In this document: positions 14,271 through 49,371 of the stretch, piece after piece | How the letters are laid out: the number at the start of each line of letters is the position of its first letter | Numbering within the stretch: position 1 is the first letter of the stretch | Assembly (NCBI GenBank): GCA_973895155.1 | Contig: OZ316891.1 | Location: forward strand, 26,839,972-26,903,971 | Length of the DNA: 64,000 bases | Source of the DNA: Marsupella aquatica | Taxonomy: Eukaryota; Plantae; Marchantiophyta | Direction of reading: 5' to 3' | Position numbers and translations under genes: made by a program | The notes under the pieces: generated by a model | Databases searched by the model: none | Seen by the model: the letters and a program-made list of their open reading frames with translations, nothing else | Told to the model about the DNA's origin: nothing

Positions 14271-18058
<3,788 letters not shown>

Positions 18059-21152: not shown

Positions 21153-21256
21153 AAAATGATGATAATGCATGATGATTTTTGTCATCATCTCTATTAACAT
21201 TCAAAGAATGGGCAGGCTAGTGATGATAAAAAATTATCATGCATTATCATCATTTT
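21153..21256. repeat. ~35-bp-arm inverted repeat (hairpin/MITE remnant)
   Basis: AAAATGATGATAATGCATGATGATTTTTGTCATCA vs TGATGATAAAAAATTATCATGCATTATCATCATTTT (reverse complement, few mismatches). Confidence 0.75.
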
Positions 21257-22037
21257 GTCATATTTTCTTATTTAAAAAGCACAATCCAATGCTCTTTCCT
21301 GAGCATAAGTAACTGTAAGTGAGGGCATAAGTGAAAATGAGTATGCAAACAAAAACTAGGGATGGGGCAAGTATGAACAGTGTATATGGGCAATCTTTTT
21401 TCTGCAAGGTTTTTTTTTCCTCCTCTGTTTATGTCAAGGAAGAGATAATCAGGCTAGTTCACATCAAGCAAACCAATAGAAAGAGAACAGTATACCTTAC
21501 TTTTTTGAGTTGAAAAGAGATTAGTTATAGAAGAATGAAAAAGAATTTAAAGTCTATGGAGAGGTGAAGATTTTCACTTATTTTTTCTATTCTCTCTATG
21601 AACTATTTTTTCCAAGTTACATTAACCCTAAATCCAAAATTCTCCGAAGCAACAACATCATGGACCAACGATACAATGGCTGCAAAGAATGAAATGGCCC
21701 CAATGATAAGCTGATGATCGTAACTATGAAATGAACTTAAGGGCAATTGTGCTGCAGTGCATGGGCAATGGGTTCATTAGAGGATACTAAAACTACATCA
21801 AACAGTCTGCATAATCTCCTCATGAGCCCCTTGATGCCTGCCATAGCCAGCTTCTTGGGTGGCCAGTTTGGGCCTCTGGGTCTTGCTCTGAGGTGACTAG
21901 TAATGTCTTTCCCATCGATTTTGTGTGTGATGGGAAATTAAAGAGACCCTCAGCTATCGGTCAAAGATCTTTCGAATTGGGAACGGTTTTCTGAGCTCTG
22001 TCTGCAACTACTGCTGCTTTCGGCTCTGCAAGATAGA

Positions 22038-25000
22038 ATGGCCAGGATGGGATTCCAAATCCAAGTAGGAGCACAACCATCTGCGTTTCTGCCCTGGCTC
22101 CCAAGTGGCGGTGGTAGTGGAAGTGGAGCTGGTGTTTCTAGGACACGCCTACATCTGCCAGTGTCCAGAGCTGACTGCTCGCTGCGAAGACGAACAGTGA
22201 GACTGCAGCAGTCAAGTGGAGGCCTCCAATTCAGTGTTTTCCGTCGAAAGGTTTCCAAACGCGGAGTTAAATTAGAGAGAATTGGATGCTCTGTTGCCCC
22301 AAGAAGCAAGCTGGAAGAATTGTCAACTGCCGAGGAGTTGGGTGAAAAGAAATTCTCGAAGGATTTCAATGAGGCAATCAGGGGCAGAGAGGAGAAGAAG
22401 TCATCATCTGTGGCTGCCGCAGATGAAGAGGGTAGTTCATTCAACTGGTTGGCACAATGGTATCCTGTGGCAGTGCTTAAGCACATGGACGAAAGGCAGC
22501 CCCATCCAGTGACCATACTGGGCAGAGAATTGGTAATGTGGTGGGATCGATCCGGTGCCCAATGGCAAGTGTTTGCAGATGCTTGTCCCCACAGACTGGC
22601 ACCCCTTTCGGAAGGGAGAATCAACGAGCAAGGGCACTTGCAATGCTCATATCACGGCTGGTCATTCGCTCCTTCCTCTGGTGCCTGCACCTTGATTCCT
22701 CAAGCCACCAAAGATCAATTCGAGGTCAGTTCGCGCAGAATTTGGGCTGAACTCGAAAAATTGCAAAGAAGCTGACACGGTCATATTTTTGCTAGCTTAG
22801 CAGTATTTGTCACAGTTGCATTTGATGCTTGTTTTACCGTCGGAGAGAACGCTCCAAACCTCTCCCAGGACATATTTTGTGTTGAAAAGGCAATAACAAT
22901 CGACACAAATCCTTATGGTTTTCGTTTCCAAACGTAAATGTTGGGGTTAGTCAATTAAGGACGTCTATACGTTGGGTCAGTTGGCGAACCCCAATTAAGG
23001 ACATGAAAACAAATTGATTTTACAACAACGGAAGGCTGCCAGTTCTGCTGTCTCATGCTGGGATATGAATAGAAGTCTTCTTCGCAGTTTGCATGTTGCA
23101 TGTTGCACATACTTCTGCTGGGTGGGTGAGAACTCATCCTTGGACTGCACGCACTAGAACACTTACTGACAGCTTCTTGGATTTCTTGCGGTTTTGAATT
23201 CAGAAGAGAAATTTGAAGCGGTCTTGCGCAGTGGTTTACCCCTCAAAGGAACAACAGGGCGTTTTGTGGGTTTACATGGACTCCTCTGTAGGTGCAGAAG
23301 AACTTTCTGGGTTGTCCCCTCCTTTTATCCCAGTGCTGAGCGATCCTGATTTTGTCTACGACTTGGGTATGAGCGATTTGCCTTACAGGTATGTTGCAAG
23401 TTAAGAACCAATACAGCTTGACTCCTGTGCTTAAAACAGGAATTCAATTCTTGCAGTCACAATTTCCCATAAGTTGTGCTAAACGGCTTTCATTCAACGT
23501 TTGTGTTTCAGTAAAAACTGTCTCCAAGACGAGTATCGAAACTTCTCCCATGCCTGACTTACCAGGTCTGAAATTTTTGCCTTGTGATTGCCAGCTATGA
23601 GATTCTCAACGAGGACCTTTTTGATCCTGCCCATGTTCACTTTGCTCATCACGGGATCCAGGTGAGCTCGTCATACTAGCTTTCTGATCTTGAGGAATGT
23701 AACTCGCTAAGCCAAGGAATCTACTCTGTCAATGGTTTCTTGAAGCGACGTGCCTCATTTGCAGTAATTGCTATTTTCTCCTCTTTTCTTAACTTTCTAC
23801 CCTGATGATCGATGGTGTGTGTAAATAAATTAGTTCCTCTCCATTGAAGTGAAGCAACTGTTGGGACCCGGAGTAAAAGGGTAATTCATCTGGCAGATGA
23901 ATGTCCACACAAGTTGAGAGCTTTCTCGTGCAACATTTGCAGGGAAGGCGAGAAAATGCAAAGCCCTTGGACTTCCGAGTGGAAGGTATTGAAAGTACAG
24001 GTTTTCGGGGAAGGAAGGATGGCGAACAAACGTTCAATTTTACTGCTCCTTGTGTGTCAACGATGGATTTTACTCTGCCACCTCCAAGTCCGGTATGCCA
24101 AGTGTCTAGCCAAGCAGTTGAATGAACCTACATTCACTTGTTTCTGACTTCGGCCATAGCAAACAGCAAAAATGATTAGATCTATTTCACGCGAGAAATG
24201 TCTAGGCGCCATCAGCTCACATCCTCTGAGCATAGAATATGTGAAGGAAAATGAGATGTCTGAGTTCATGAAGTGAGTGGTCGTGTTGCACCTTTTGCAG
24301 GCAAAGGGACATCCTTGGGCCTTGAAGCTTCGAGAATTTATCATCTCAAAGGGATCTGCAGGCGAAGGTTCGAAGAGGCAAATTTCACTTGTATTTTTTT
24401 CTGTACCAACGTCGCCAGAAAGGAGCAGACTTTTCTTTGCTTTCCCGAGGAATTTTGCAAAGGCTGTACATAATTGGACTCCCAAATGGTGCAATCATGT
24501 AGTGAACATGACTGTTTTTGATTCTGATACGGTGTTACTGCATCTCTTGGTAATTCTTACCCCGTCATTTGGGTGATTCTGCTTGTAGGAAACTGATGCA
24601 TAGAATGAGCTTTTTTGTAAAGCACACATGCGGATGCATTTATGAAGGTTCAGGCAGATGCATAGAATGGGCTGTTGTTGTGAATCAAGTAGGTCCTGCG
24701 CCATATCTTCATTGCCCAGTGGAAACTCAACGCTTCTTACAGACGACAGAGCTTTTTCCAGACGACAGAGCTTTTTCCATCTGACCACTCAAAAGGCCGG
24801 AAACTACAAGAAGCAGTTCCTTTTGGTTCCTTGAAGATCACATTTTTGCCGGTGGTTCTAGGCAAAACGAGTATGATGCAGAACCGCGTTATTTTGCTGG
24901 GTTTCACTTGGAACGATTCCAACGGACCCTGTTAATTGAAAAGAGTCTAATCTTATCTCCTTACCTTCGCTCAGGAACGTCGATTGGAAGACAGAGGTGG

Positions 25001-26827: not shown

Positions 26828-27209
26828 AAAGCTGGTGGTTCTAGGTTTTGACATGGACAGTGGCACTTTAAACTAAACATCCACTATTACCTTATTGAGT
26901 ATGTACAATACTTCCTTGCATGGATTATTCAGCCTTAGAATGTCATTTATGGTATTTGTACAATTTGTTGCCCGAGTGACAAAGGCTTGTCTGATCCCAA
27001 CTTTTGGGTGGGTTGGTGTAAAAAGCTTTTGCCCATGGTGAGCTTCAAACCCACAACCTCTGCCTTCCCACTCAGCTCAGTTGCCCTTATGCCCTCAGTC
27101 TGTTGATAAAAAAGAAGGATCCATTTATTTTGATAATGAACATCCTGCCCGGGAAGCATCTGGCAGGCAGGGGGTACAGAGTCATTAATGACTTTCCAGG
27201 GACCCGTAG

Positions 27210-27679
27210 CCCTGAATCATGGATCATGGAGGGAGGACCAGTTGTGGGGATTCTGTACATAAGCTGCCATGGATAGCAATTTTCAATCAGCCACCGCCCT
27301 GAACCCTGAATCATGGATCATGGAGGGAGGACCAGTTGTGGGGATTCTGTACATAAGCTGCCATGGATAGCAATTTTCAATCAGCCACCGCCCTGAACCC
27401 TGAATCATGGATCATGGAGGGAGGACCAGTTGTGGGGATTCTGTACACAAGCTGCCATGGATAGCAATTTTCAATCAGCCACCGCCCTGAACCCTGAATC
27501 ATGGATCATGGAGGGAGGACCAGTTGTGGGGATTCTGTACACAAGCTGCCATGGATAGCAATTTTCAATCAGCCACCGCCCTGAACCCTGAATCATGGAT
27601 CATGGAGGGAGGACCAGTTGTGAGGATTCTGTACATAAGCTGCCATAGATAGCAATTTCCAATCAGCCACCGCCCTGAA
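27210..27679. repeat. 94-bp tandem repeat x5 inside a dispersed repeat that is the MULE insertion target
   Basis: CCCTGAATCATGGATCATGGAGGGAGGACCAGTTGTG...CCACCGCCCTGAA starting 27210, 27304, 27398, 27492, 27586; near-identical. Confidence 0.92.
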
Positions 27680-27813
27680 CGGAAGCCAAGTATTGCTCCA
27701 AAGTGTCCCAAGATCAGGGCACCAATTGAGACTTAGTCTAGCCCACTTGGATGTGGCTTTGTGTGTCCTTCCTGGCTTGCCCTTGAGGTTTCCAAAGGTG
27801 TGAGGTGCTGGTG

Positions 27814-27896
27814 GAGTTATATGCTTGATGGGCCCTCTACGGAACCTTTCTTACCTGATGGGCCCCTTGGAACTTTTTTTACCCAATAGGCCCCCT
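27814..27896 (+). repeat. Left TIR of MULE (three internal TGATGGGCCC-type subrepeats)
   Basis: GAGTTATATGCTTGATGGGCCCTCTACGGAACCTTTCTTACCTGATGGGCCCCT...; reverse complement of 42386-42469. Confidence 0.93.
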
Positions 27897-28536
27897 GTCA
27901 GTATTTTTCGTCAGAAGTTCTTATCATGGGCACTATAACGGGATTTTCCGCCTTGCAGTGACCAACCACGTTTTTAAAAAAGACTATGGTCAACCATGAC
28001 TCCAGGCAAACTGCACAGTCAGACCGTGCGGTCCCTGCATGGTCGATCGACAAACCACGGAAATTATCCGGGACAAACCGCGAAAAGCCGCCGCTGCCAA
28101 AACTGCGATGTGAAGACAATATTCATTATGTCTTCGGATTCGCAATTTTACCAATGGCTGGGTAGTCATGACGTTTGCTTGTATGGGTTTTTTGCTGAGT
28201 CAACATCCTGCAGGAGAAACACGTGAAACCGCGGACACGAAGTGGGAGAAACAAAGAAATATGTGGGAGAAACACGTGAAACCGGGGACATGAAGTGGGA
28301 GAACCACGAAAAGCCGTCGCCGCTGCCCAAGCCGCGACTTGAATACAATATGGATTATGTATTCAAATTGAAATTTTTACCGTATCGCAGGGTCGTCATT
28401 AGGTTTGGTTTTCACACGGTGCACACGGGTTTTTCACGATGTTTTCATGTGCGGCTGACAGCGTAAGTGCGGAGTACCTGCGGAGTACCTCCAAATGTGC
28501 ACAGTGAATATTGAAGTCCAATGATCACAGTCTCCT

Positions 28537-31500
28537 ATGACAATGAACATGTCAGGTGCAGATGAAGAGGATAATGAAGCAGTGCAAGTGCATCTCTGGC
28601 GTAGAGGGGACGTATGCGATGTGGACATCCCGGAAGCTGACAGACCGCCACCTCAAGAGAGTCCATGTTTTGGAAGGAGAAAGAGACCCGCCTCAAACTT
28701 GGCAGCAATTCTGGAAGGGAAGAGTCCTGAGCAAGGTGAGAATTTGGTTTGCTGAAATGTGGGGGTATACTTGTTGTGGGCATTGGGCCTGAATGCCATC
28801 TCACGGCGCACTTGTTATGAAATTAATAGAACCTTGTGCGATGGAGGAAACACCTGATAAATGACTCCAATGCATTTTGGCTCCAATCTACAAGCTTTTG
28901 TTATCTTCCATGAAGATCTGTCTTCCTTGTCATTCAATTGTCAATATGGATCAATATTTATTTAAACTCATGGAATGCTTCTCTGGACTGTTTCTCTGGA
29001 CTGTGGATTCAATTGATTTGGTCTTCTATTGCTGCCTAGTACCTATATTGCCTGTATCGCAAAAGAATTGGCTTCCTGGATTGGAGAAGCATTTTTAGAC
29101 AGAAATCATTATGTCTTCACATAATTTCGTGTCCAGATTATCGTTTTCCAAGGTGAGAATTTGGTTTGCTGAAATGTGGGGGTGCACTTGTTGTTTACTA
29201 TGCCTGAATGCCATCGCCGCACTTGTTATGAAATTAGCAACCTGGATTGGAGAAGCATTTTTAGACACAAATCATTATGTCTTCAAATTATTTCGTGTCC
29301 AGATTATCGTTTTCCTTGAATGAACTATCCTTGAGTGAGTGTATTGAACTAATTGTACCTCTATTGTTTCTGGACTTTGGAAGCATTAGCCTGATTTCAT
29401 TTCATCTTCTATCCCTACACAATAATGGATTTATAGATATGTCCCCAAATAAGTCATAAGGTGTAGTGTCTGTGGACTGTAGAAGTATGTGTAGACGTTA
29501 ATAATGTTGTCTTCACACTGTATGTACAACATCGCTTGCAGTGGAAGCAGAGGCAGCCAGAATTCGCTTGGGCGAGCGATTCAGTGATTTTGAACAGTTT
29601 GGCCGTTGCTTAGATTCATGGGCTATCATGAATGGCCGTGTGGTTTCCAGATATAAAAGTAAAGGAAGCTTTCGAACTAGAGTGTGTCGATTTAGCAATC
29701 CTGTAAGAAAATCTTCCAGGATTCCACCTACTCCAGGAGACTGCAATGGTGGTTTGGTAGCTGAAGATGCTGCTGATGATGATGATGATGATCAAGGTGA
29801 AGGCCAACATGATCGCCAAGATGAAGAGGAAGAGGAATCTGAAGATGAGCTCTTTTGGCACTATGATAGTCGATACGGGGAGTACACTGGCTTCCGTGAC
29901 AAAGGTTCAGGGAAGTCTAAAACTAAGGGTCTTGCTCAGAGTCTAAATCCACATGCACAGTCTATACTCACAGCAGAACAGGTAAGTGCTCACGTGCTTT
30001 CACCAATTCTGGCAACTATCCCTTGTTGCCTTTTCAGTATTTTTGACAATGGGTGTCTTTGGACATTGTGTAGGTGGAAGACATTGAATTTGAGAAGGCT
30101 ATACTATAGATGACAGGATCCCAAAAGCAAGTTCGTGCTCCTCTTGGAGACCTTCATCCAAACAATTTGCTGAGCAAGCAACCGAGAGTCACCGCCACAC
30201 TCCCACCAGCCTTGGGAGTCCTCACAAGCAGACCTACAGCAATCATCAAGCATACTAGTGTTTGGTTGCCTGGCAGGAAATCAGGCAACAAATCAGCAAC
30301 TGGAGCATGTGGGGAGATGTCCAGATTCAGGCCGCCTGAATCTTATGATGAAGAAGGTGTTGATACTTCTTTGTCTTGCCCATTTCGAGTTCGTTGTCAT
30401 CGGCAAGCAGAAACAGGGGCCCATGTGATCACAGTGTGTGATCTCAAACACACTTGTGCAGCGTCAAAACACAAATGGAGAGGCCCAACACAGAAGTTGA
30501 TTTGGTTGGGTGATACCTTGGCTCCAAGAGTAACACGAAATTTGAAAGTGCCAGTGAAAGAATTACTAAATGGCTTCCAGGGGGACTACAAGAAGAGTAC
30601 CACTTACCACCAGATGTGGCGGGCTAAGGACTATATTAAACATATTCACCTTGGTGGACAGGAGGACACGTTCAGAATGATACCGGCACTCATTGCTAGG
30701 TTGAGGGAGGCTGACCCTGCTTGCATTGCAGAGTGGTCTCCTATGGAAGACTCTAACATTTTCTGTAGAGCTTTTATTTGCCCATCGGCTACAAGGAAAG
30801 CTCTCCAATTCGTTCAGCCGTTGATTTCGCTTGATGCCTGTCACACCAAGAACAGAAAGTACCCCACTCAACTCTTCTTGGCAACATGCTTAGATGGCAA
30901 TGCACAGAATTTCATACTTTGTTATGCAGTTGCTCCAGTGGAGAACACTGAGAATTGGATTTGGTTTCTTCAACTAGTTGATAGAGCCCTCTATGGCATT
31001 GAATCCACAATCATGCCAATCATATCAGATCGCCAGAAGGGTCTGGTTGCTGCAGTTAGAGAAGTATGGCCAGGTAAGATCCATGCAGCTTGTGCCAATC
31101 ACTTGAGGGCAAATGTCAAGACCAGGCATGGCAGAACAGCGGCTAATATATTCATTGGTTGCATTTATGCAAACGACATAATTCAGTGAGCATTACATAC
31201 CTTTCCTTTCATTTCTCAATTGCCTGTTGTAAGACATTCAATACACTATATATATACATAATGATGAATGTCTTCACTGCGATTCACAATACATATACAT
31301 AATGATGAATGTCTTCACTGCGATTCACAATACATATACATAATGATGTATGTCTTCTATGTGCCTCTATATGGGTGTGTACTGAATGCTTCAGTACACA
31401 AATGTGCATACATTTAATGATGAATGTCTTCTGTGTGCCTTTGTATGGATGGCTTGTCAATGTTTTTAGTACAGAAGTGTGCATACATAATGATGAATGT

Positions 31501-33020
31501 CTTCTCTTTGCTCAGTACATTAGATGTAGACAAGATTATTTGTCTTCTCTCTACTATTGTAACCGTCTGGTGTCCCCTCTGTGGCGGTATAACAGGTATG
31601 AATCTTCTTTGAGGCGGCTATCCAGTGCCGTACATTCAAGTAAGTCAGATGATGCTGTAAACTACATCAGAACTTTTGATGTTAGACAGTACTCTCGGAT
31701 GGCCTTCCCACTTCCACGGATGGGCAAGGTTACAAGTAACCCTTGTGAGCAAGCTAATTCAGGGTTATTGCCATTTCGGGAATTTGCCCTTTTCAAGTTA
31801 TTAGTTCAACTTTGGATTTACATGCAGCAGAAGCTTAAAGACAGGAGAACAACAGCACTTGCTAGACAGGAAGCATTGACAATTCCAGCCCTCATCAGAT
31901 ACAACAACAACTTGAAAACTTTTGGTCAATGGCAGGTAAACATTTCAAATCTGACTTTCAAATCTGACTTGTACTAGTGTGGTAAGGTTCAATGTCTCGA
32001 TCTCAATGTCTGGTGACATTCAGTAATCAAACAATTGACATGGGCAGGTGTTTGATGATGGACAATCCACTGCAAAAGTACAAACAACATCCGGCAGTGA
32101 AGAGTATCTTGTGTCCCTAGCACCCAAGAAATCTTGCTCATGTTTTGAACTACAAGAAATGGTGTGGCCATGTGAGCACATCATGGCATGGGATGACCAG
32201 GAAGGGCGGAACCCATCTGCACATTTTCATAGGTGTTGGCGAACAGGTTCATTGCTTGCTTTGTATGATGAGGTCATGCCTAGCTTTGTTGTAAGTGACC
32301 TTCAGTTGAGTCCTAATTGTGCCCCTCCAGAGGTTGCTATGAAAAGGGGTCGTCATAGGATAGTTCGATTCCAGCAAGGTGATCGAGGTACAAGGCATGG
32401 ACCCAGGGCTATTAGAGAAGGAGAAGATGTGGTTTACAACACCTCAGGAGAACGTTTCTTGAGGTACCCAGTGTTTGATGACCCCAACAGGGTGGAACCA
32501 TTTTCCCGGTGCAAACACTTATGCTGGACTTCCAGGGATTCAAATTCAGCCACGTAAGAAGAAGCTGCGCCAGTATATCGGCAAGTGTAGGTGCTCCAAT
32601 TGTGGAGAAGCTGGACACAACAGAAGGACTTGTCCCAAAATTGCAGAGGTACAGGATTCCTCAATAAACCACTAAGTTCATTGTTGAGTTTATTACTGAT
32701 TGTGCGGGTGGGTAATGCTTCGCTTTTGTTACCATTTCATTGTGCAGGTGGATAATGCTGGTTCACATACATATCATACTCAGTGGTCACCTCTTCCAGG
32801 AGAAGACCTGGTGGCAACTGAATATTTTATTCCTTCTACAGCACCAAGCACAGGCATTGGTCCAGACAGCACAATTGCAACAAGACATGATGATCCTTTT
32901 CACTCTTACAATGGACCCCCTGAAAACATGCAACGATACTTAGAGTTGGCAGAGGAGGTTGCCATGGAGTGCCGAGGCTTTGGATCACAGTATCAGGAAG
33001 ATATCACTTCATTTGACTAG
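28537..33020 (+). pseudogene. MuDR/MULE transposase (mudrA-like), 6 exons, ~987 codons, disrupted by one in-frame TAG and one +1 frameshift
   Basis: Exons 28537-28735, 29542-29981, 30074-31185, 31596-31935, 32048-32648, 32748-33020. MuDR N-terminal DBD-like (LGERFSDFEQFGRCLDSWAI); DDE residues SLDACHT, IISDRQKGL, SNPCEQANS; CANH motif; SWIM finger CSC...WPCEH; zinc knuckle CSNCGEAGHNRRTC. TAG at 30107-30109; frameshift at ~32501-32504. Confidence 0.88.
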
Positions 33021-33139
33021 TACTTCATTTGACTAACTGTACTTCATGATATGGAACAAACAACTGCTTTGGTTGTGCCCTCAAGAATAGTTAACATAGA
33101 GCTAACTGGCATTTCAGTGTTCGTGTGATCGCATTTTTT

Positions 33140-33316
33140 GAAGACATTTTTCATGTTGTCTTCAGTGTTCAAAAAATGATCTTGTTATTTGAAGACATTT
33201 TTCATGTTGTCTTTAGTGTTCAAAAAATGAATGAGTTACTTGAAGACATATTTCATGTTGTCTTCAGTGTTCAAAACATGATCGAGTTACTTGAAGACAT
33301 TTTTCATGTTGTCTTC
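33140..33316. repeat. 51-bp tandem repeat x4, each unit carrying GAAGAC-N12-GTCTTY
   Basis: GAAGAC at 33140, 33191, 33242, 33293, each followed 12 nt later by GTCTTC/GTCTTT. Confidence 0.9.
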
Positions 33317-33651
33317 ACGTGCACTTTTGGATCCTATGTCGACGGTGCGATATTAGGGTGACCGTTGCGGGGTTTAGGGCGTCCTTAAACCGTCCCCCTG
33401 AGGTAAACCTGTTTCAAGCGCGACGTAGCATGCAGCGTAGCCCATTTGCAACGTCGTGCAAGCGGGAGAGGGGAGCAGAGAGCAGACCATTGAGCAACTT
33501 CAGAGGATAGCAGAGAGTAGTCGATTGAGCACACTTCGGAACAATGGCAAAGGCGAATGCTGACTTTTTGGTTTGATTGTTGTGGGCATTGGGCTTTGGT
33601 GTATGGAACATCTTGGCAATTCTCAGTTACATTTTCTTTGCCATCCATTGT

Positions 33652-34344
33652 ATGCTGGAACGCGCGTGTGCTCTCTTCCCCTATCGAAATGACGATCTAG
33701 GCTGCCTAAGCAGGCTGGCTGTTTGTCGGCCACCTGAATCCAAGTCCCATATTACTTTGGGACCAGTAGATGGGGAGCGTGAAGCAGTTGACAATTCTGG
33801 AGCAGGGACTGTGCGAGCTGATGTTGAGCTCAAATCTGAGGTTGGGGTAGGAAGACTGCAACCTGATGTTGGGCCATTGAAAGTCGATGTTGGCTCCACA
33901 ACAAAAGGCGACAGTCATGTTCAGCTGGAATCTGAGGCTGGTGTAGTGAAAGCTGGACCGTATGGGCGAGTAGAAGGTCTTGTGAGGAGAACGCCTAGAA
34001 GGCTGTCGATTGCTTTGCCTTATAATTGTTATCTAGGCGCGCCCTCTCCAAAGAAATGGTATGGAATTGCAAAGGGCAGGAGTCCTGGGATTTACCGCAC
34101 TTGGGAGGAGGCAGAGGCTCAGGTCACTGGTTTTAGTGGAGCAAATCATAAGTCCTTCAAGTCCCACTCTGAAGCTGAGACATGGCTACAGCGTCAGTTC
34201 AATGCAATGGGGGCACAGTGGAAGGTTCCTAATCTAGCCGATAGGCATAGGGTCAATGTTAAATTGCTTGGAATAGATGAGTCTGGCCATGAAGTGTTCA
34301 AATGTGACTGTTGTGAGGAGATTTTCTGTAGCAATGAACATTAG
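33652..34344 (+). CDS. MULE-borne ORF with RNase H1 N-terminal hybrid-binding / caulimovirus viroplasmin-like domain; no RNase H catalytic domain; Cys-rich C-terminus
   Basis: KKWYGIAKGRSPGIYRTWEEAEAQVTGFSGANHKSFKSHSEAETWL matches the YAVxxGRxPGIYxTWxExxxQVxGFxGAxxKxFxxxxEAxxW signature; ATG 33652 in frame; ends FKCDCCEEIFC. True start and end uncertain. Confidence 0.75.
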   Translation: MLERACALFPYRNDDLGCLSRLAVCRPPESKSHITLGPVDGEREAVDNSGAGTVRADVELKSEVGVGRLQPDVGPLKVDVGSTTKGDSHVQLESEAGVVKAGPYGRVEGLVRRTPRRLSIALPYNCYLGAPSPKKWYGIAKGRSPGIYRTWEEAEAQVTGFSGANHKSFKSHSEAETWLQRQFNAMGAQWKVPNLADRHRVNVKLLGIDESGHEVFKCDCCEEIFCSNEH

Positions 34345-35141
34345 ACCCATACGGGGTAATGGGTATAGCTTACGATTGGCTGAGGTGATGGGTACAATTC
34401 AGGATTCCCTGAGCTCCCACTGTAACTCATTGCAGACTAGGCAGAGGCTAGCAGCAGAAGTAATTGTAGTTTTGCAAATTTTGAAGACTGCATACGCAGA
34501 CGTACTCCACACATTTTGAAATCAGCAATTGAAGCAATTATTGGAATTTGCAATGTTGAGTGCATGGATGTCCATTTCTGTGCAATGTGTATTGAGCTAT
34601 TCTTTGCTGCCTCATGGCATTGTATTCCATTACTATCGGCCTAGGTCTGTTTAGCAGCAAATTGCGCCAAGGTCTACCTCGCGACCGTTCGACCTCCCTG
34701 AACGGGATCTGCAATCGAGTGTCCGCCGCAACAACCCATATATTTTCCTACTTTGGTACGAAGACAAAAACCATATTGTCTTCATGTACATACACCCAAA
34801 GTTGCGTAACAGTGTGGGAACAAAACCAAGTAACTTTGACCCATGCCCCCTGGTAACCATCGTTCTTCTGTCCAAGGAGCATCCAAACACTCAAATTGCC
34901 CCCCTCTTGCAACGGCACAATTTTGGTGGAAGCGTGTAATGAAGACAATAATCATGTTGTGTTCACATGTTTCATTCATTGCATGCTGTATTTTGGACTT
35001 CAAATCACCATTTTTTTCAGGGTAGCCACCATACATACTCAGCATTTTTGTACAAACTTATCAGGATGTTTATGTTGTTAATGGAGATGTTAATGGACCT
35101 GTCACACTTACTCTGGATGCTTATGCTCTTAGAGTTTTTTA

Positions 35142-35454
35142 CTAACTTGTCCCCTAAACTACTACCCAATATTATTAACTTGTTCCTCGGACAAAATTAA
35201 TTATTAACTTAATTGTCCCCCAATTTTCATTTGGGTTAATATTAACTCATATATGGGTTCCCGTAACCAAGTGAGGCCGATGAAGAGGTGCCCTGATGGG
35301 CTCATACGTACGATCCAATAACAACTTGCCAGATGGTAATGGGAACCCATATACATTTTAATATTGATACAAATACAAAATGGAGGACATGTTGATAAAA
35401 AAATTTGTTTTGGGGGCACCTTAGCAATATTAGGTAATTTGGGGGACAGGTTAG
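35142..35454. mobile_element. Nested MITE with TA target duplication (Tc1/mariner-type)
   Basis: TA|CTAACTTGTCCCCTAAA... and ...TTTGGGGGACAGGTTAG|TA; imperfect TIR extends ~55 bp. Confidence 0.65.
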
Positions 35455-35730
35455 TAGGGTTTAGGGGTTTAGAGTTTAGGGCCCTTAATGATCTTGGTAC
35501 ATATATATGCTCAATTGACAAAACTAGGCCTTACTTTGGAGTTTTGTAGCACTGAGGGTGTTATACCAATTTTTAGGTACCCCATTTATTCACAACATAT
35601 TTTGCAAAAGAAAAGGAAGAGGTAGGAGGGGGATCAATTTTGTCAATCTCTTGACCCACTTCAAGTCAAACATCCATACATATTCTCTATTCTTGGGTGT
35701 AATTGAAGCCCTACTTTTTGAACAAATGTA

Positions 35731-35997
35731 TAGGGTTTAGGGTGTATAGCCTACTAGTAGCCTCAAAGAGGGTTTAGGGTGTATAGGCTACTAGGAGTTG
35801 GCAGAGGGTTTAGGGTAGGCCTTCTTTCATTACTTCTAGGCCAGAGGCATAACTCACTAAATGGCCTCATTTGAACAATGGAGATATAGGATGAGTTTTA
35901 TGGGGTTGTTATTCTTGCCTCACCTTATACAATACAAAAGGTCGGAGGAAACTTAGGGTTTAGGGTTTAGGTTTAGGTTTAGGGTTTAGGTTTAGGG
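35731..35997 (+). repeat. Interstitial plant telomere-like repeats (TTTAGGG/TTTAGG) inside the MULE
   Basis: Seven consecutive TTTAGG(G)-type units at 35953-35997; GGGTTTAGGG at ~35733, ~35770, ~35806; more at 35457-35481. Confidence 0.8.
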
Positions 35998-37355
35998 CAT
36001 AATGGTTTACTTAAACTTGTATTTGGGTAAATTTGATAAAGCAAGAATAAATCAAATAAAGGTTAAACTCATACAAGTTCATGCTTTTATGTACACACCT
36101 CCTCTACAGTAAGGAATCATCTCACGACACAAACACACCTGGCCTCATACGTGACCATTGAATTGAAGCAAAAATTAATATTGTCCATCTATGCGGATTT
36201 CATCCATGGTCCCTGCTGCCTCCCAGAACCCCAAGCATGCCGGGGCCAAAGACCCAACATTAATGTGACATATGTAAGAGCCTTCTTACTAATATTGTGC
36301 CAAATGTTCTTTCTTGCTGTGCCTAATGTTCTTCCTTTGCAAGGATGCCACATAACATGAGGGGGTCTAACACAAGGAAAACTATATGTGAAGACATTAT
36401 TAATGTTGTGTTCACATAATTAGCCCTACATATATTTGAGTCTGAATGAAACCCAATTCAGATTATTTGTAATAGTGAGTGAAGACAAAATTAATGGTGT
36501 CTACAAATTTGCCCAAGTCTGCCTACAACCCACACCCCCTTCATCTGGCCGTCCGCACCCGGTCATTTAAATTATGTGTAAGAGTTAGGGAAGACAGCAT
36601 ACATGTTGTCTTCCTTTTTCCAAAGTGTGTAATTAGGAACCCGGGTACCCTTCTTCTGGCTGTCCGCCCCCACCCGGTCTTTCACATTATTTGTAAGTGG
36701 AATGAAGACAAGATCATGGAGTCTACAGGTTTGCCCCGAAAGTTTCCAAGTGTCCTCTTTTTTTGGCCATTTGTGAGTGCGGAAGACAAGATGCGTGTCG
36801 TCTTTTGCATTCTAAACTTCACAGAAGCAGACTGGAATGATCATGTTATAATAGTAAGGAACTCCACTTTGTGACCAGGTTGAACGGAGTTGGCCCCTGC
36901 TTACCATTTGAACGAGACTACCTACTTTAGCATGCATTGTATCCAAACACACATGAGGTGTCATTGGTAATCAATTATGGACAATAATTTCATAATGAAC
37001 ACAACCTTGTAGGTGAAAATTTACTTAAGGAAATGTCTGTACAAGTTATGAGGACCCATTATATGACTACCACTGTTGGGAGCTCATGAAGTACCCATGA
37101 CGCTACCACTGAAAATGGGGAAGGGTGTGGAAGTCAACTGGTAAATTGGGAAGGGTGCAGCAGCTGGTTGATACTCTGCCTGAAAGTATCCTGAGAAGAA
37201 GTGACTTGGGAGTCAATCTGAAGTATTTTTGAAAGCATAAACGTGTCTAAAGTGTAACCATCATCTATTGGAATATCATCCAAGGGACTCGTGACATGAG
37301 ATGGTCCCCCTCTTCCTCGGCCCCTCCCTCTACTTGCCACGCTCTTATGCCGCTT

Positions 37356-40300
37356 CTACTTTTGTATGACACTGTCTTGCACTGCTAGGTCATCATCTTC
37401 AGGGTTCAGAAACACAACATTGGTAGTCGGATCAACTGCGAGTAGAGGAACTATCTTAATAGCCTGACCCTGGTGCGATTTTGAGACCGGTTTCCTCTTC
37501 TTAGAGGCTTGAACAGGTCCTAAGGCCAGTGTAGTTTCTCTCTGTAGTCCATACAATCCAAACAAACATCAGAAGATGTTGCAAACTCTATATTGACATT
37601 ACAAAACTTAAGGCGTTTGACCAGCAAAACATTGATGATAGAAATGTGGCATACCTGGGAGCCCATTGGTGCAGGTGCTGGTGTAGGGGCAGGTGGTGGA
37701 GTAGCTGTAGGGAGCTCATGCACTGATACCCCGGATACCCTTTCTCTTCCCCTTGCCCTGCCTCCCTACAATCCAAACAAACATGCAAAGGCAGTGGAGG
37801 TTAACGTCCTGAACCTGCAAAGCGAAACCACGAATAGAGCAAGGGAATTGGGGGCAGATCCATTCCAGACCTTGGAGGGGTTGGTTGGCGCTGCAGGGGG
37901 CGGTGCTGCTGCTGCTGCTCTGCTCTCCAACAATGCCCCCCTCCTTATTCGTCCCTACACAAAAAAAGATCTAATGTGAACAGGAAGACATCGTGGTTAT
38001 CGTCTCCAACCTGCAGAGCAATTCAAGACGCGTATACAGCAAGGGAATTGGGGGCAGATCCAATCCAGACCTTGGAGGGGTTGGTTGGTGCTGCAGGGGG
38101 CGGTGCTGCTGCTGCTGCTCTGCTCTCCAACAATGCCCCCCTCCTTATTTGTCCCTACACAAAAAAAGATCTAATGTGAACAGGAAGACATCATGGTTAT
38201 CGTCTCCAACCTGCAGAGCAATTCAAGATGCGTATACAGCAAGGGAATTGGGGGCAGATCCAATCCAGACCTTGGAGGGGTTGGTTGGCGCTGCAGGGGG
38301 CGGTGCTGCTGCTGCTGCTGCTGCTATGCTCTCCAACAATGCCCCCCTCCTTCGTCGCTACAAGAAAAAAATGAATGGTGACTTGAAAGACATCATGGTT
38401 CTCATCTCCAACCTGCAAAGCAATTCAAGACACGGAAACAGCAAGGGAATTGGGGGCAGATCCAATCCAGACCTTGGAGGGGTTGGTTGGCACTGCAGGG
38501 GGCGGTGCTGCTGCTAGTGCTGGGATCTCAAGGGATGCCCCCCTCCTTCGTCGCTACAAGAAAAAAAATGAATGGTGACTTGAAAGACATCATGGTTCTT
38601 GTCTCCAACCTGCAAAGCAATTCAAGACACGGAAACAACAAGGGAATTGGGGGCAGATCTATTCCAGACCTTGGAGGGCTTCGTTGGCACTACACAGTAG
38701 ACCTGGAGTTCTGCTGGTGCTGGACTGTCTGGGATGTCCAGGGATACACCCATTCCTCCCTACAATGAAACAAATGCACAACAAACTTAAAAGACAAGAA
38801 GGATCACGTCTTCAACGTGCAAAGCAATTCTAGATATAGGCTAACCAAAGTAATTGGGGCCCAAAGAGGTCAGAAAATGAGTTCCATACGTCGGTGGGAG
38901 GCTCCAACACATGTGCATTCTGTTGAAAGCTGAGGGGGATCTCTGGATGGATAGGAACTTGAAATGCCTCTTCACATAGACAGTCCTCAATAGGAGCTGG
39001 TACCTCCTCTATCCCTTGGGCTTCTTGCTGTGGTTGGTCCTCTGGTGTGTTTTCTGGTACCTCCTCCTCCCCTTGGGCTTCTTGTTGTGGTTGGTCCTCT
39101 GGTGTGTTCTCTGGTACCTCCTCCTCCCCTATCTCTTTTTGCTGTGGTTGTTCCTCTGGTGTGTTCTCTGGTACCTCCTCCTCCCCTATCTCTTCTTGCT
39201 GTGGTTGTTCCTCTGGTGGGTTCTCTGCTACCTCGTCCTCCCCTTGGGCTTCTTGCTGTGCTTGGACCTCTGCTGGCTCGTCATCCCCATGAACTGATTC
39301 ATGAGGTCCATCCTCTTCATCCCCTGCCATTGTTTCTTCCGGGTCTTCCGCTGCTGCACCAGTTATAGCAGGTTCCTGTGGTTCTTCCTTGGGTCCCTCT
39401 TCATCACTTTCCTCACATAGCAAACCCCACTTTGCAGGGCCAATCTCATAATCACTCTCATCAGAGGTGTCCTGCCACACCTCTGAGACTCCAGCCTACA
39501 CAATAACACAGCACTATGAATCTCACATGGCACAGGCATACATTACAAAACAAATAATTCATGGAGCCTAGACTTACCGCCTCCCGAGCACTTCGAACTG
39601 TCATGCCCCTCCTCTTGTATTCTTGGATGAGATTTGTAGTAGACTTTGCAAGCGTTGTGGGCTTCTGGTCTCGCTTCCATTCCCTGTAGTCAGCAGCAGT
39701 AGCTTCGAAATCTACTAGCTTGGGCGCAATCTTCCACTTCAGCAGTGCCCTTTTCTGCTTCAAGTATTCCACTGCCTGACCAATGAGGTTCTCCCAAACC
39801 TCCTCAATGTGCAGAAGATGGGGAGGTTGCACCTCCACATGTAGCTGAGGGAAACAACATTGTAGCATGGCACTGTCCATTTTTAAAGCTACCAGTTTTT
39901 TATCCCTTGGCAGCACAATGGGCATCTGTTTGATAAGCTCAATCCATCCAAACACAATAGGAGAAGTGCCAGCAGACTCCGGAAATTCCAACAACATCTC
40001 AAACATAGAATCATCTAGCAAACAGGACCAACCCTGGTTGCACATGGGATGAATGTGTGCAGCTTTGATAACCCAAACGAGAAGCGTTTTTGTTGGGACA
40101 GTGGGCTCCTCTCCAACAACCAGATATTTCTTCTTCAGCATAGCTTTCCTCCTAGACTTGGATTGCTTCCATCGCAGCTGAACGGTAGACCTCAGGCGCG
40201 TCCATGTTGCTTCATTAGGCTCCTTCACAGCAGCAATCCGACCCGACTTGCGGTTCTTGTCTACACGAGCTGAGAGTTCAAATCTTGAAGCCAACCAAGG

Positions 40301-40504
40301 CAGGCCCGGCTCCAACAGTGCAGCTGGCAACTGCAGGTTGTGGGCAATATACATATGGGTCTGGAATGCCTTGAAAGATGGATGGGAGCGGGGCTTATGG
40401 GTCCCAACTATGCAAAACCAGTTGTGTTTGCCCTTGCCATCAACATGGTGACGGAAGTGGACATCTTCCTTGGCTATGGAGTAATTAGTGCCCTGTGGCG
40501 CCAT
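37356..40504 (-). CDS. MULE accessory gene of unknown function, convergent with the transposase, 9 predicted exons, ~751 aa (possibly ~825 aa originally, to 37134)
   Basis: Exons (minus) 40504-39578, 39495-38890, 38759-38670, 38553-38473, 38357-38271, 38154-38071, 37954-37871, 37765-37655, 37541-37356; all introns GT-AG and phase 0. Contains a His/Cys-rich N-terminus, a basic segment, acidic 19-aa repeats, R/A/P-rich repeats and a KKRK NLS-like motif. The frame continues past the TAG into RGRGRGRGG until 37134. Confidence 0.72.
37838..38690. repeat. ~200-bp tandem repeat x4-5 whose unit is one exon plus one intron of the accessory gene
   Basis: AAGGGAATTGGGGGCAGATC recurs at ~200-bp spacing; on the minus strand each unit has TGTAG|exon...CCAAG|GTCTGG. 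Confidence 0.88.
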
Positions 40505-42385
40505 AGCAACTATGAAGACTACAAAGCAGCCTTGGTTGGGCTCAAGATCTCACCCAACCCTCGTCTGTGCTCTTCAATTGCCACTCCACACCTAGAATGA
40601 CACGCAGGAAATTAAAAAGACATACCAACATACACAGGAAATATAGCAGCATCAAAAGCTCCAAATAAAACTTCACCCTACACAAAGAGTGACCTAGGAG
40701 ATGACGATAATCACACGGAACAGGGGAAGAAACCAGGCGTCAAGTTTTATTTTCCAGGTGCGCACTTCTTAGAGTATGATAATTGAGAGTCCCGATTCCC
40801 GCACGGGAGGTGAAGTGAACTACAGAAGCCATGAACTACAGAAGTTGTCATTGCAAAAATTTGGTTTGCATCAAACTGGGGGCAGATCATGGAATGTTTG
40901 CAATGCCTGTGCATAGAGAGTGCTTGTAAAACTAAGAATTCTCTGCCAACAATTGACTAATGATTAAACCAAATCTAGTAGCAAACAAAATGAGACAGTG
41001 CGAGTAGAACTAAGATTTATTTTAGAGAGCTTTAGAAAATGCTTTGACCTAGTTGCAAACAACTTGAAGGAGACAGACGAAGATTCAAGAACTTTTACAA
41101 AATCATTCAACCTGGGGGACTGTCGTTGCAAACGAATTGACGGGTTGAAAGAGCACTTTTAAAGACTGAGTGAGAGAAAAAGAGAGAACAACGAGAAGCA
41201 ACTATCATGCACCAACACTACAGCAAGAGGTAACGCAAATTTCCGGCCTCTCGATGGCCGCCTAAGATCAATGTAACAGTCTAGTTCTTCCTCACCCGCC
41301 TCTCTTCCAAAACCCTCTTTTGTCTCCCACCAACAAACACTATCGATCTCTCTACGGGAAATTAGTTCATTCTCGTCTGCTACGTCTTTCGACTATTCTT
41401 CAACTACCAAAAATAAAGCAATGCAAGCCAAACTTAAGTATAGGAGAACGTCCAACCTTCAGCCTGCCTACCTCGTTGCTTCAAAGCAAAACGCCCTTGA
41501 ATCTCTCGCGCATTGATGAATCCTATACGGGACCCCTGGGAGTTGGAATGGTTGCAACCTCACAGAGTCACAGGGTCACATTTGGCTCTCGCGAAACCTC
41601 AAACCTCAAAGAGCGGTTCTGACAGCTCGCTGCGGTTCTTTGCCATAGCACTGAGGGGGTCAAACAGCAATGCAAGTTTGCGCAAATAATTTATAGAGGC
41701 CAATCTATAGTCATCACCAGTGAAAACGGGGCTACATTCATTTTTGGTACTCTGAAATGATAATGTTTGGACCATCGGCAATCAGATTGACTCAATGCAA
41801 CAAGACAAAACTTACAGACACATTGGGTAGCCAGTTTGAGTGGTGGGGAACGTCGTCCAGGTGGGGAACGTCGCATTTAGTGGCTGCTGCTCTACAATCA
41901 AATTGGACCCTGCGCTTTGCTTATGCCCATGCTCCCAACAAAAAATGCAACGTGCTGCAACAGTCTTCTCCTACCGAACCCGACCATCAACAAACCCGAT
42001 CATCAACAAGCAACAACATCCACAAAAGTCGAGCATCGATTGAACCCGAGCACCCGCCCGAGCATGGCCAGCAGATCAACAAAACCCGAGAGCTTCTCTT
42101 CTCTCCAAACAACATAGACCGACGATTGTCGGGGTTTAGCGGTAGGGAACCCTAAACCCCCCAAAACAACCGAATACATAATATAATATGTATTCAAATG
42201 TAAACCCGCCCACACCGTATTTACAACCGTGGTGTTGACTGCATTGGACACTCAGTTGGGATCACGGTAACTACGGCGCGGACCACGGAGGACTGGACGT
42301 GACCACGCAGTGTACAACGTTAAGTTACGTTGCGGTAAACTGCAGAGTTTGGCCCTCACAAGAACAGTGAGTACAAATCATTAAG

Positions 42386-42469
42386 AGGGGGCCCATCAGG
42401 TAAAAAAAGTTCCCCAGGGGCCCATCAGGTAAGAAAGGTTCCGTAGAGGGCCCATCAAGCATATACCTC
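42386..42469 (-). repeat. Right TIR of MULE
   Basis: ...AGGGGGCCCATCAGGTAAAAAAAGTTCCCCAGGGGCCCATCAGGTAAGAAAGGTTCCGTAGAGGGCCCATCAAGCATATACCTC followed by the TSD. Confidence 0.93.
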
Positions 42470-44579
42470 GGTGCTGGTGTCAAGAAAGGATTCCCAATCA
42501 AAAACTATAATACATTCTTGTGCCCTTTTTTTGTGGTTGTCATTCAAATTTCATGGTTTTAGTGCCCAAAAAAGGAAAAAAGTTCGTCAAAAGAGAAGAA
42601 TAAAGCAAAAGTGTGAACTTAATTTAGCGTGAATGAAAGGGTAAGGAGAGTCATTAATGTCTTTCCAGGACCCCTAGCCCTGAATCATGGATCTTGGAAT
42701 GGATCATGGATAGAGGATCTTCCTCGATTCTTGAGCATTGTGTTGCTGTCATTATTATGGGTCTAATTATTATGGGTCTAGTTACGGGTCTAGTTAGAGA
42801 CTCTTGTAAATCTAAAAATTCTGTGAAAAATCCACTTCATCCCAAAAATTCTAAACCATTGGATCTGTATAATTGGACCATCTAGATTGATTTCATGTGC
42901 GAGCACTTGTGCAAACACTTGTGTGGAACAAAAGTGAAAATTGATTCTCAGTCATTGGATGTTTCTAATTGGAGCATCTAGATTTCTTGCATGTGGGAAT
43001 AGTTGTATCCATAATGGTGTGGAACAAAAATGAGAACTGGTATCAGATTCCATTCGAATGTCATACCAAAATAGATGCATGTCAATTTCTCATCATTCTT
43101 CTCAACCAAGCCATGCCAAAATGAATGAGTGTACATGTCCAATTAACTTACCCCCCATTCCATGCCTCCACATCTATTTTACATCAACTCATCATCAAAC
43201 ACTATAATACACTATCCACCCAAAAAGTATTGTAGTCTTTTACAAAATAATGAGGAAAATTTGAGAGTCAATCAGACCTGGTCTTTCATCAAAAATTGAA
43301 TTTTTTTGGTACCATCAGATCCACCTAGACACTCCTCCCACCTCAAATGTCTATCCAATGCCTGCCCACATCTGCCCAAAATGGAAATTAAATAAAATTT
43401 GGAAATATGAATATGTAAACTTTTATTAAAATATGTATACAGAGTAACTTAAAAAATAATATATTTAAAATACACTCCCCCATATTGTGCAACCATGCTT
43501 GGACACCCATCACATGTGCCCATGCACTAACCTTCACCCTCCCCAACAACAACACTTTCACAACAACAACCTTGGGGGACTCATGCCAAGGGGGGTCTCA
43601 CATCACATGGAAAGTTTTGGAGGAATAACACCTTAAAATATAAGTAAAAGTATTTATCACATTTTTGCAACCCTTACCTTTTAGTATAATCTTGGAATGT
43701 TCCCCATTCAGTTTTTTAATTTTAATTTTTTAAGGCAAAATCTATGAAACCCCATAGAAAAAGAACATGCAGTCACAACATTTGAACCCAAGATTTATCA
43801 GTCTTTACTCAAGTGAGCTATTACACAACCATGCTTCTCTGGGCCAAAAACCATTATTTTAACTCTTATAACTTTCAAAACTTGATTGAAACACCTCTAA
43901 TGCTCTTCCACAATAATTTATAGGTCTTTCACTAAACCCAATTAAACTGTGGACCCCCATGTTCATCCAAGGAATGTGTGTATGATGAAGTGAAATCAAT
44001 TTTCAGCAAGGCGGTAACCAATGGTTTTGAGTCTCCCGATGGTATTGGTGTGTGCTCGTACAAAAGAAAATGCTCAAAAGATAGAGGAGATATATCAAAC
44101 GGAAGGTTGAATGTGGAGGATTTGAGTTTTTTGACGGTTTTTGCTTACACATTGGAGAAATCGTGTTTCTACCATTCTTGATTGATCGTTTGTGAGTTAC
44201 ATTGAGCATTACGGCCACAAGACAGACTGGAGGACAATACTCAAAGTCTGTTAGCGAAAAAGCGCTTGTCGAGTTCAGTGGGAAGAACACACAAAACGAA
44301 TGAGCCATCACTTCACACGAAGGATTCGTAGTTTTTTATTTAAGAAAACTATGGTGTGAGGGGGAGACCAAAAATTGTTTCTTTGACATAGAGGTTGCAT
44401 TTGGCATCAACCTGTGTCCAGAGTGAGCTTCAGTTGAAGACTAGAGGGATGCAAACAATTCAAGCCAGGAAGCAAGCATTGTGGACAAGCGATAGTGACA
44501 TAATCAAAGAAATCAATTTGCAGGGGCTAAGTTTGTGATAGTGACGAGATTACAGTGATATCTCTTAATCGAGAAAGGG

Positions 44580-49007: not shown

Positions 49008-49371
49008 TTTCATTCACCCTAAATTAAGTTCACACTTTTGCTTATTCCTTCTCTTTTCACCAGATTTTTTCCTTTTGGGGGCACTGCAAGTTACCATAAA
49101 ATTTGAATGACAACCACAGAAAAAAAGGGCACAAGAATGTATTATAGTTTTTGATTGGGAATCCTTTCTTGACACTAGCACGACACACCTTTGGGACCCT
49201 TAAGGGCAAGCCAGGAAGGACACACAAAGCCATATCCAAGTGGGCTAGACTAAGTCTCAATTGGTGCCCTGATCTTGGGACACTTTGGAGCAATACTTGG
49301 CTACCGTTCAGGGTGGTAGCTTATTTGAAAATTGCTACGTGTGGCAACTTATGTACAGAATCCCCACCACT
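49008..49371 (-). repeat. Uninterrupted (empty-site) paralog of the repeat into which the MULE inserted
   Basis: Reverse complement aligns continuously with 27620-27813 joined to 42480-42640; carries a single target copy CGTGCTAGTG (plus 49173-49182). Confidence 0.9.

Follow-up and report, generated by a model that had tools for sequence, protein, structure and literature searches.

A Mutator-like element (MULE) of 14.66 kb (27814-42469), having 84-bp terminal inverted repeats (TIRs), a 10-bp target site duplication (TSD), and three genes, carries about 26 copies of one 24-26-bp word, GAAGAC-N12-GTCTTC, in its non-coding parts only, as judged in the 64-kb window, i.e., the whole stretch of DNA that was analysed. 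It is quite possible, if somewhat short of probable, that this word represents the binding sites of the protein encoded by the convergent accessory gene, and that the two form an independently evolved, VANC-like self-activation system. This reading is favoured by the confinement of the word to one family, its fixed spacing, its location in non-coding DNA outside the TIRs, and the retention of CpG around its palindromic copies. We infer that the accessory protein binds DNA, and this word in particular.

The element and its genes

The element was assigned to the Mutator superfamily from PF10551 (E 1.6e-13) and PF04434 (SWIM; E 1e-4) in the transposase, and from TIRs that are 92.9% identical over 84 nt together with the TSD of 10 bp; the TSDs of MULEs are 9-11 bp long. 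The left TIR (27814-27896, forward strand) contains 28-29-bp internal repeats and was aligned over 84 nt with the right TIR (42386-42469, reverse strand). An identical 10-mer flanks them at 27804-27813 and 42470-42479. The host repeat has a paralogue with an empty site (about 49008-49371), in which this 10-mer occurs once; this confirms the TSD. A TIR-bearing MULE had been proposed in an earlier, sequence-only reading, and the transposase domains, the TIRs, and the TSD bear it out. Past 42469, 25 contigs in run X1 and 32 in run X3 run into dissimilar flanks. All three genes are broken in the present copy, a decayed member of a multicopy plant element that is probably from a liverwort; therefore, any activity would have to be supplied in trans by sister copies.

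The transposase gene (28543-33020, forward strand) was modelled with six spliced exons and encodes PF10551, SWIM, and weak zf-CCHC motifs. Exon 3 has a premature stop, and the frame shifts once in the stretch that separates SWIM from CCHC; the transposase core had no sequence match in the PDB. Gene 2 (33544-34519, forward strand, ends approximate) was delineated from its frames. Its domain at about 34054-34185 matches PF01693 (hybrid-binding, Cauli_VI; E 1e-18) and the RNase H1 N-terminal structures 1qhk (E 1.9e-8) and 3bsu (E 2e-5); beyond this domain, a Cys/His-rich stretch is broken by a stop. Gene 2 is absent from the sequence-only reading.

The accessory gene (37134-40504, reverse strand) is convergent, like the second gene of MuDR, and was defined from homologues, spliced frames, and structure models. 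Exon 1 (40504-39579) codes for three parts, namely a zinc-finger-like domain, a basic helix, and a domain that is helical; the product of exon 2 is acidic and contains repeats of 19 aa. The 3' part is composed of amplified units of an ~84-nt exon and an ~116-nt intron, and the last exon has a premature stop. A homologue search at E<=1e-3 gave 14 hits, one of which, P0014, was a low-complexity artefact; exon 1 has 13 homologues, one of them from the liverwort Calypogeia, and no longer homologues were found. Residues C31, H50, and H55, together with H/C36, are invariant in 7/7 alignment rows. The N-terminus was modelled as beta-beta-alpha with a pLDDT of 94, and may be a C2H2-type zinc finger. 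The segment of residues 73-130 is basic (18 K/R versus 4 D/E). The accessory proteins constitute an undescribed, zinc-finger-like family.

A Pfam scan at E<=0.1 of three segments, namely the ORFs of exons 1 and 2 and the 3' portion of the final exon, gave no match; nor did the family have a PDB sequence match. For the whole exon 1, no Foldseek match was found at E<=0.001, and the best VIA Z, 7.5, was to generic helical hairpins. The best match of the N-terminal domain (Serrate 3ax1; Z 3.7, rmsd 2.7, 46 aligned) and its weak Kaiso zinc-finger rows were below significance. VANC21 was not among the fold-search matches listed. The best ESM Atlas scores, 0.77 and 0.88, are leads only. A homodimer prediction for exon 1, in which the alignment was unused and the fold was uncertain, gave a score of 0.00 and counts neither for nor against a dimer. 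A metagenome scan with the accessory alignment returned 226 pattern matches and 0 relatives.

Distribution of the word

The exact word occurs 6 times inside 27814-42469 and 0 times outside; the corresponding counts were 15 and 0 at <=1 mismatch, and 21 and 3 at <=2. None of the 24 other spacer lengths in the range 0-24 gave an exact match inside or outside, and at <=1 mismatch their maximum was 3 inside. Dinucleotide shuffles gave an expectation of 0.24 matches at <=1 mismatch, and 0/100 reached 15. The sharp peak at a spacer of 12, anticipated in the sequence-only reading, was thus obtained on the 64-kb window, with all sites of <=1 mismatch inside the element. In addition, GAAGACA/TGTCTTC is the top enriched 7-mer of the element versus the rest of the window (31 versus 10).

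All 25 sites listed in that reading were found (25/25). Its figure of about 25 copies holds as to position, but 31252, 31293, 31334, and 38386 have three mismatches, and two sites had been overlooked, 31408 (degenerate) and 36704 (11-nt spacer), which were added. Likewise, none of the 25 listed sites overlaps the exon model, which is made of ORFs and GT-AG sites and covers 6413/14656 nt (p about 0.001 with about 12 independent clusters). The flanks of the ~12 separate clusters are unrelated (identity 0.33-0.34). A comparable cluster had been said to be missing from the rest of the window; indeed no cluster is present, although one degenerate copy was located at 1863, within a related but diverged MULE end (1536-2000, forward strand) that has a TIR-like start and TIR repeats unlike those of the element. 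Helical phasing of 16 inter-site distances was weak (R<=0.37) and was dropped as evidence.

Upstream of the transposase gene, the perfect site 28112 and the GAATAC..GTATTC site 28341 (28112-28364) lie in paralogous ~105-bp blocks, in a zone with a CpG o/e of 1.17-1.44. By motif scanning against the spliced model, intron 1 of the transposase gene contains three imperfect sites (29095-29514, forward strand), and five imperfect, mostly one-arm sites (31252, 31293, 31334, 31408, and 31481; 31252-31504, forward strand) are in the 41-/74-bp repeats of intron 3. Four sites form a 51-bp tandem array (33140-33316) immediately 5' of a CpG-rich stretch and gene 2. The perfect site 34760, which is followed by the imperfect site 34941 (34760-34964), adjoins an internal CpG-rich patch (34614-34813). 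Five sites are intergenic (36390, 36481, 36590, 36704, and 36782; 36390-36805), three of them in ~110-bp degenerate repeats. The 200-bp exon-intron repeat of the accessory gene carries five imperfect sites (37984-38813), each in its own intron; in the paralogous intron at about 37767-37871, the site has been lost. The right subterminal GAATAC..GTATTC site (42172-42195) lies upstream of the accessory gene, where the DNA is again rich in CpG. The palindromic variants described earlier for both subterminal regions (28341 and 42172) are therefore present. Each of the three genes has a fully palindromic site upstream of it (28341, 33293, and 42172). The accessory zinc-finger-like protein might dock at these upstream positions and along the introns, and such docking would keep the element transcribed and locally unmethylated.

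The subterminal sites, 193-298 bp inside both element ends, also bear on an alternative which we consider improbable, namely that the word is a secondary binding site of the transposase, for synapsis or self-activation (cf. AtMu1 and MURA). Palindromic GAATAC variants are found at both ends, and a site is at the equivalent position in the related MULE end. Furthermore, MULE transposases can self-activate, and can lower the methylation of their own copies, in the absence of accessory proteins (bioRxiv 10.64898/2026.08.24.746577; MURA, PMC10398659). However, the site scan detected no GAAGAC sites inside the TIRs, whose repeats are a different, 28-29-bp unit. Most sites are kilobases from the ends, five of them in accessory-gene introns, whereas the binding of AtMu1 peaks at TIRs (bioRxiv 10.64898/2026.08.24.746577).

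A host transcription factor site, recruited and amplified as promoter or enhancer modules, is likewise a poor prospect in our estimate. The best copies are 5' of each gene in CpG-rich, promoter-like DNA, and the word is common to MULEs with different TIR repeats. GGGCCC repeats in the TIRs and telomere-like repeats, also in the element, may resemble host promoter elements. Against this, the 49 kb of the window outside the element, made up of host genes and repeats, contains 0 sites at <=1 mismatch, the closest outside match being in a MULE end. We know of no plant factor with such a 6-12-6 site; an auxin response factor site was considered on account of the TGTC in the word.

Conservation and CpG retention

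The sequence-only reading held that the spacers are unrelated to each other and that only the arms and the spacing are kept. This does not hold: among 16 representatives, about one per tandem array, the mean spacer identity was 0.55, versus 0.37 +/- 0.014 in shuffles, 0/500 of which equalled it. The oriented consensus is t-GAAGAC-A-w-n-A-T-G-w-w-T-w-w-T-GTCTTC-a. One arm is nearly invariant and the other is variable; this means that the site is directional. The spacer is also conserved and directional, which weakens the argument for a symmetric dimer as the reader. Two fingers of the accessory protein might contact the inverted half-sites, and the reading of one of these and of part of the spacer would be stricter. 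A conserved, directional spacer would also be expected if a single ancestral module had been copied.

In 12 paralogous repeat pairs, 125/144 arm, 110/144 spacer, and 544/829 flank bases are identical, in a comparison ascertained on the arms, with end gaps included in the flanks and with pairs that are not independent. In an unbiased comparison of sister copies (471 nt, 4 runs), no excess conservation of the arms was seen: 3/22 substitutions fell in ~55 arm bases, the same as the flank rate. Runs X1 and X2 differ at 38808, within the strong arm of site 38790. The spacer of 36704 is 11 nt here and 12 nt in organisms B and C, where three spacer differences shift toward the consensus. The degenerate site 1863 in the diverged MULE end is at a position homologous to 28112, and this homology survives motif masking (z 5.3, 0/200 shuffles). 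A metagenome motif scan gave 110 loci, which were taken as chance matches because none had a second site or homology to the element (blastn and tblastx).

Some of these features would be expected if the copies were a functionless relic of one 26-30-bp module, propagated by slippage, template switching, or tandem duplication, or if they acted as an RNA hairpin; we regard this explanation as distinctly unlikely. The similarity among spacers is ancestry-like, and some distant sites are 87-90% alike over 29-32 nt. The sister copies, in which arm conservation is not in excess, and the site missing from one paralogous intron point in the same direction. On the other hand, the ~12 clusters with unrelated flanks are all non-coding, the arms outlast the spacers in diverged pairs (38790/38583: 11/12 versus 6/12 identical), and both arms were changed in concert between the paralogues 28112 and 28341. 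An RNA hairpin was ruled out as a general explanation, since many intron copies cannot pair (folding energies of -0.4 to -5), sites are present upstream of genes, and no Rfam match was found.

The flanking CpG o/e was 1.04 at the six fully palindromic sites (five clusters) and 0.36 at 14 imperfect sites, compared with 0.54 at random non-coding positions and 0.33 in coding DNA. The excess at palindromic sites, a post hoc comparison, had a cluster-level p of 0.002-0.004. On removal of the subterminal and gene-2 promoter zones the link was gone (o/e 0.51, 0.32, 0.30, 0.43, and 0.49 with distance), and most of it is thus accounted for by ordinary hypomethylation of promoters. The patch at 34760 is the only CpG-rich patch independent of promoter zones. 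The footprint at perfect sites is compatible with local protection from methylation and is confounded with promoters; under the accessory-protein reading, CpG retention would reflect the action of that protein.

Relation to known self-activating elements

Like the present element, VANDAL21/VANC21 and VANDAL6/VANC6 are three-gene MULEs (Hosaka et al. 2017, PMC5735166; Sasaki et al. 2023, PMC10398659). VANC targets are short, family-confined, tandem-amplified motifs in introns, intergenic DNA, and terminal non-coding DNA, and VANC21 binds in these three locations (PMC5735166); the present motif is likewise short, tandem-amplified, and non-coding, its specificity being gauged within the 64-kb window. 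VANC genes combine a conserved domain with a variable part that is rich in tandem repeats and has amplified exons (PMC5735166), a composition shared by the accessory gene, and a local CG effect is expected at bound sites in both. The VANC family is defined by the DUF1985 and DUF287 domains (PMC5735166), whereas 0/14 accessory family members match either (PMD-related) domain at E<=1. The layout of the VANC-like system proposed in the sequence-only reading thus stands, but the zinc-finger-like accessory protein does not appear to be a VANC and is an analogue at best. The VANC motif is an 8-9-bp word arrayed in one orientation, unlike the present 24-26-bp spaced quasi-palindrome. VANDAL TIRs are absent or degenerate (PMC10398659, PMC6446971), whereas those of the present element are intact (92.9% over 84 nt), and its gene 2, with an RNase H1 N-terminal domain, is a further difference.

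In Spm/CACTA, the element-encoded accessory protein TnpA likewise has clustered, family-specific motifs, and its binding causes local hypomethylation and activation (bioRxiv 10.64898/2026.08.24.746577). This is another superfamily; TnpA sites are confined to the termini, and TnpA is derived from the DNA-binding domain of a transposase. AtMu1 and MuDR are TIR-bearing MULEs whose transposase can self-activate (bioRxiv 10.64898/2026.08.24.746577, PMC12973397, PMC10398659); known binding is at TIRs, whereas the present sites are outside them, and MURB is described as a transposase partner rather than a reader of a DNA motif, the present accessory protein having no Pfam match.

A broader proposal, which at present seems rather unlikely, is a non-VANC mode of self-activation in liverwort MULEs: a zinc-finger protein would read the 26-bp palindrome, symmetric sites would keep promoters CG-unmethylated over evolutionary time, and gene 2 may act against RNA-guided silencing through its RNA:DNA-hybrid/dsRNA-binding domain. 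In the diverged MULE end, the word has been kept despite different TIR repeats, in contrast to the fast, family-specific turnover of VANC motifs; a host factor is also compatible with this observation.

Sequence-specific anti-silencing by an accessory protein is already established for VANC, derived from MAIN/PMD proteins, and for TnpA. VANC has been reported as dicot-specific (PMC13547354). Literature searches on MULE accessory and zinc-finger proteins, on bryophyte or Marchantia Mutator elements, and on Cauli_VI/RNase H1 domains in transposons and MULEs yielded no account of the present system. The finding supplies a defined protein and a site that is both long and specific, and it predicts a methylation footprint; as a tool for targeted epigenome activation, the 26-bp site would be much more specific than VANC words of 8-9 bp. 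If the accessory protein binds the word, the strategy arose again in an early-diverging lineage of land plants on an unrelated scaffold, and anti-silencing by accessory proteins would have evolved repeatedly instead of being peculiar to dicots.

Structure of the repeated word

The array of GAAGAC-N12-GTCTTC sites in the MULE at 27814-42469 is a real feature, and all 25 site coordinates of the sequence-only reading were correct. When spacer lengths of 0-24 were scanned, a single sharp peak appeared at 12, as had been claimed: 6 sites matched exactly, 15 with ≤1 mismatch and 21 with ≤2 mismatches within the element, against 0, 0 and 3 in the remaining 49 kb of the window, and no other length gave an exact match in the window. 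Shuffled sequences predict 0.24 matches with ≤1 mismatch, and none of 100 shuffles reached 15. An unbiased count of 7-mers also ranked the half-site first for enrichment in the element. Matrix scanning added 31408, a degenerate site, and at 36704 there is one whose spacer is 11 nt long.

The spacers had been regarded as mutually unrelated. This does not hold: their mean identity (16 representatives) was 0.55, versus 0.37 ± 0.014 after shuffling (0/500 reached it), whereas the site flanks were unrelated (0.33-0.34). The oriented consensus is t-GAAGAC-A-w-n-A-T-G-w-w-T-w-w-T-GTCTTC-a, in which spacer positions A10, T11 and G12 are retained in 15, 12 and 11 of the 16 representatives, respectively. 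In oriented sites the GTCTTC arm shows almost no variation, and the opposite arm differs at positions 1, 2 and 4. This means that the word is one directional quasi-palindrome of 24-26 bp, not a pair of arms flanking free DNA. A weak match (score 12.6) lies at 41-64, where the window edge cuts off its surroundings. Two short MITE-like self-inverted repeats occur at 21153-21256 and 13704-13870, the first with a weak matrix match at 21163.

The element and its genes

The element is bounded by 84-nt TIRs (92.9% identical) with a 10-bp TSD; at ~49008-49371 the host repeat recurs with the site empty, and the TSD is present there once. The repeat into which the MULE is inserted (also ~27180-27813 and 42470-42700) contains five 94-bp tandem units, and a copy in inverted orientation occurs at another place in the window. 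In public sequencing runs from three organisms the element is covered by contigs, of which 25 (run X1) and 32 (run X3) cross 42469 into dissimilar flanks, so that the family is multicopy. At ~1536-2200 (+) lies an end of a related but diverged MULE, whose TIR repeats of 29-30 bp are its own; its second end was not found within the window. From their translations alone, we take four ordinary host genes to encode an aspartyl protease (5496-7106), an enoyl-CoA hydratase-like protein (14229-15761), a Rieske oxygenase-like protein (21942-22772) and an LRR receptor kinase (59490-63306).

Three genes are present. The transposase matches MULE, SWIM and, weakly, CCHC, and its frame contains one premature stop and one frameshift. 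Gene 2 (33544-34519, +), on the same strand and absent from the sequence-only reading, encodes an RNase H1 N-terminal domain (Cauli_VI, hybrid/dsRNA-binding; E 1e-18; structure 1qhk, E 1.9e-8), followed by a Cys/His-rich stretch broken by a stop; no nuclease domain was seen in it. This region is covered in the runs of all three organisms, and no MULE cargo with this domain was found described in the literature searched. The first exon of the convergent accessory gene encodes 308 aa; an acidic exon of repeats and amplified mini-exons come next, and its last exon contains a premature stop. Since all three genes are broken, the copy in the window is dead. The intergenic segments 35140-35456 and 35730-36000 contain a ~320-bp imperfect inverted repeat and runs of telomere-like repeats, possibly a nested small element.

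A full-library search gave 14 accessory homologues at E ≤ 1e-3, and 13 after P0014, a low-complexity repeat, was dropped; among ten looked up, the single one assigned to a species comes from Calypogeia fissa (25% identity, E 2.8e-5), pointing to a liverwort host. None of the family matched Pfam significantly. In the N-terminus, C31, H50 and H55 are invariant and residue 36 is H or C. It was confidently modelled as beta-beta-alpha (pLDDT 94), with structural matches below significance, and may be read as zinc-finger-like. A basic linker and helix follow, then a helical domain. DUF1985 and DUF287 are the defining domains of VANC proteins (PMC5735166), which are related to PMD/MAIN and called dicot-specific (PMC13547354); the accessory protein is not a member of this family.

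Placement, CpG footprint and conservation

The claimed absence from exons was borne out: no site overlapped the exon model, built from ORFs and splice signals only, which codes 6413 of 14656 nt (p ~0.001 for 12 clusters). Each of the three genes has a fully palindromic site upstream; introns and intergenic DNA contain all the others, a placement like that of VANC21 (PMC5735166). The TIRs, built on their own repeat, contain no site. This differs from the AtMu1 transposase, whose binding peaks at TIRs (bioRxiv 10.64898/2026.08.24.746577); that the word represents transposase sites seems unlikely. In the accessory gene, an exon-intron unit (~84 + ~116 nt) was tandemly duplicated at 37838-38834 (-), enlarging the gene; each duplicated intron has one site, and the outermost paralogous intron has lost its own.

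CpG is depleted in the element (o/e 0.33 in coding DNA). In a post hoc comparison with palindromic sites sampled one per tandem array, flanking CpG o/e was 1.04 at six fully palindromic sites (five clusters) versus 0.36 at 14 imperfect sites and 0.54 at random non-coding positions (cluster p 0.002-0.004). Site 36590 showed little effect (0.56). Distance from sites had no effect once the end and gene-2 promoter zones were removed, and hence only the patch beside the perfect site 34760 is independent of promoters. This isolated CpG-rich patch (34614-34813), to which no gene was assigned, could be a relic promoter. Recognition of the word by a host factor is about as improbable as recognition by the transposase.

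In 12 paralogous pairs, chosen on their arms and mutually non-independent, identity was 87% in arms, 76% in spacers and 66% in flanks, and both arms changed in concert between 28112 and 28341. With the motif masked, the diverged end at ~1536 aligned with the left end of the element (z 5.3, 0/200 shuffles) and has a site at the equivalent position. Between sister copies over 36360-36830 there are 22 substitutions and 3 indels. About 55 arm bases were covered, and 3 of the substitutions lie in them, which amounts to no excess conservation of the arms. Judged by hand, three changes in the spacer were toward the consensus and two in the arms away from it. The spacer at 36704 is 12 nt in the two other organisms, and runs X1 and X2 differ within the strong arm of site 38790. 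This mixed evidence leans toward maintenance of the site; a copied relic or an RNA hairpin is the least probable explanation.

Possible function

We found no account of this system in the literature searched. We tentatively prefer, at somewhat below even chances, that the word is bound by the accessory protein, which intact sister copies would supply; that the protein binds, how it oligomerizes and any effect on methylation are inferred. Sites of full symmetry would mark promoters, and weaker ones would spread occupancy along the element body. The bound protein would keep the element active and locally unmethylated. By analogy, such a system likely resembles VANC or TnpA in its working, outside both families.
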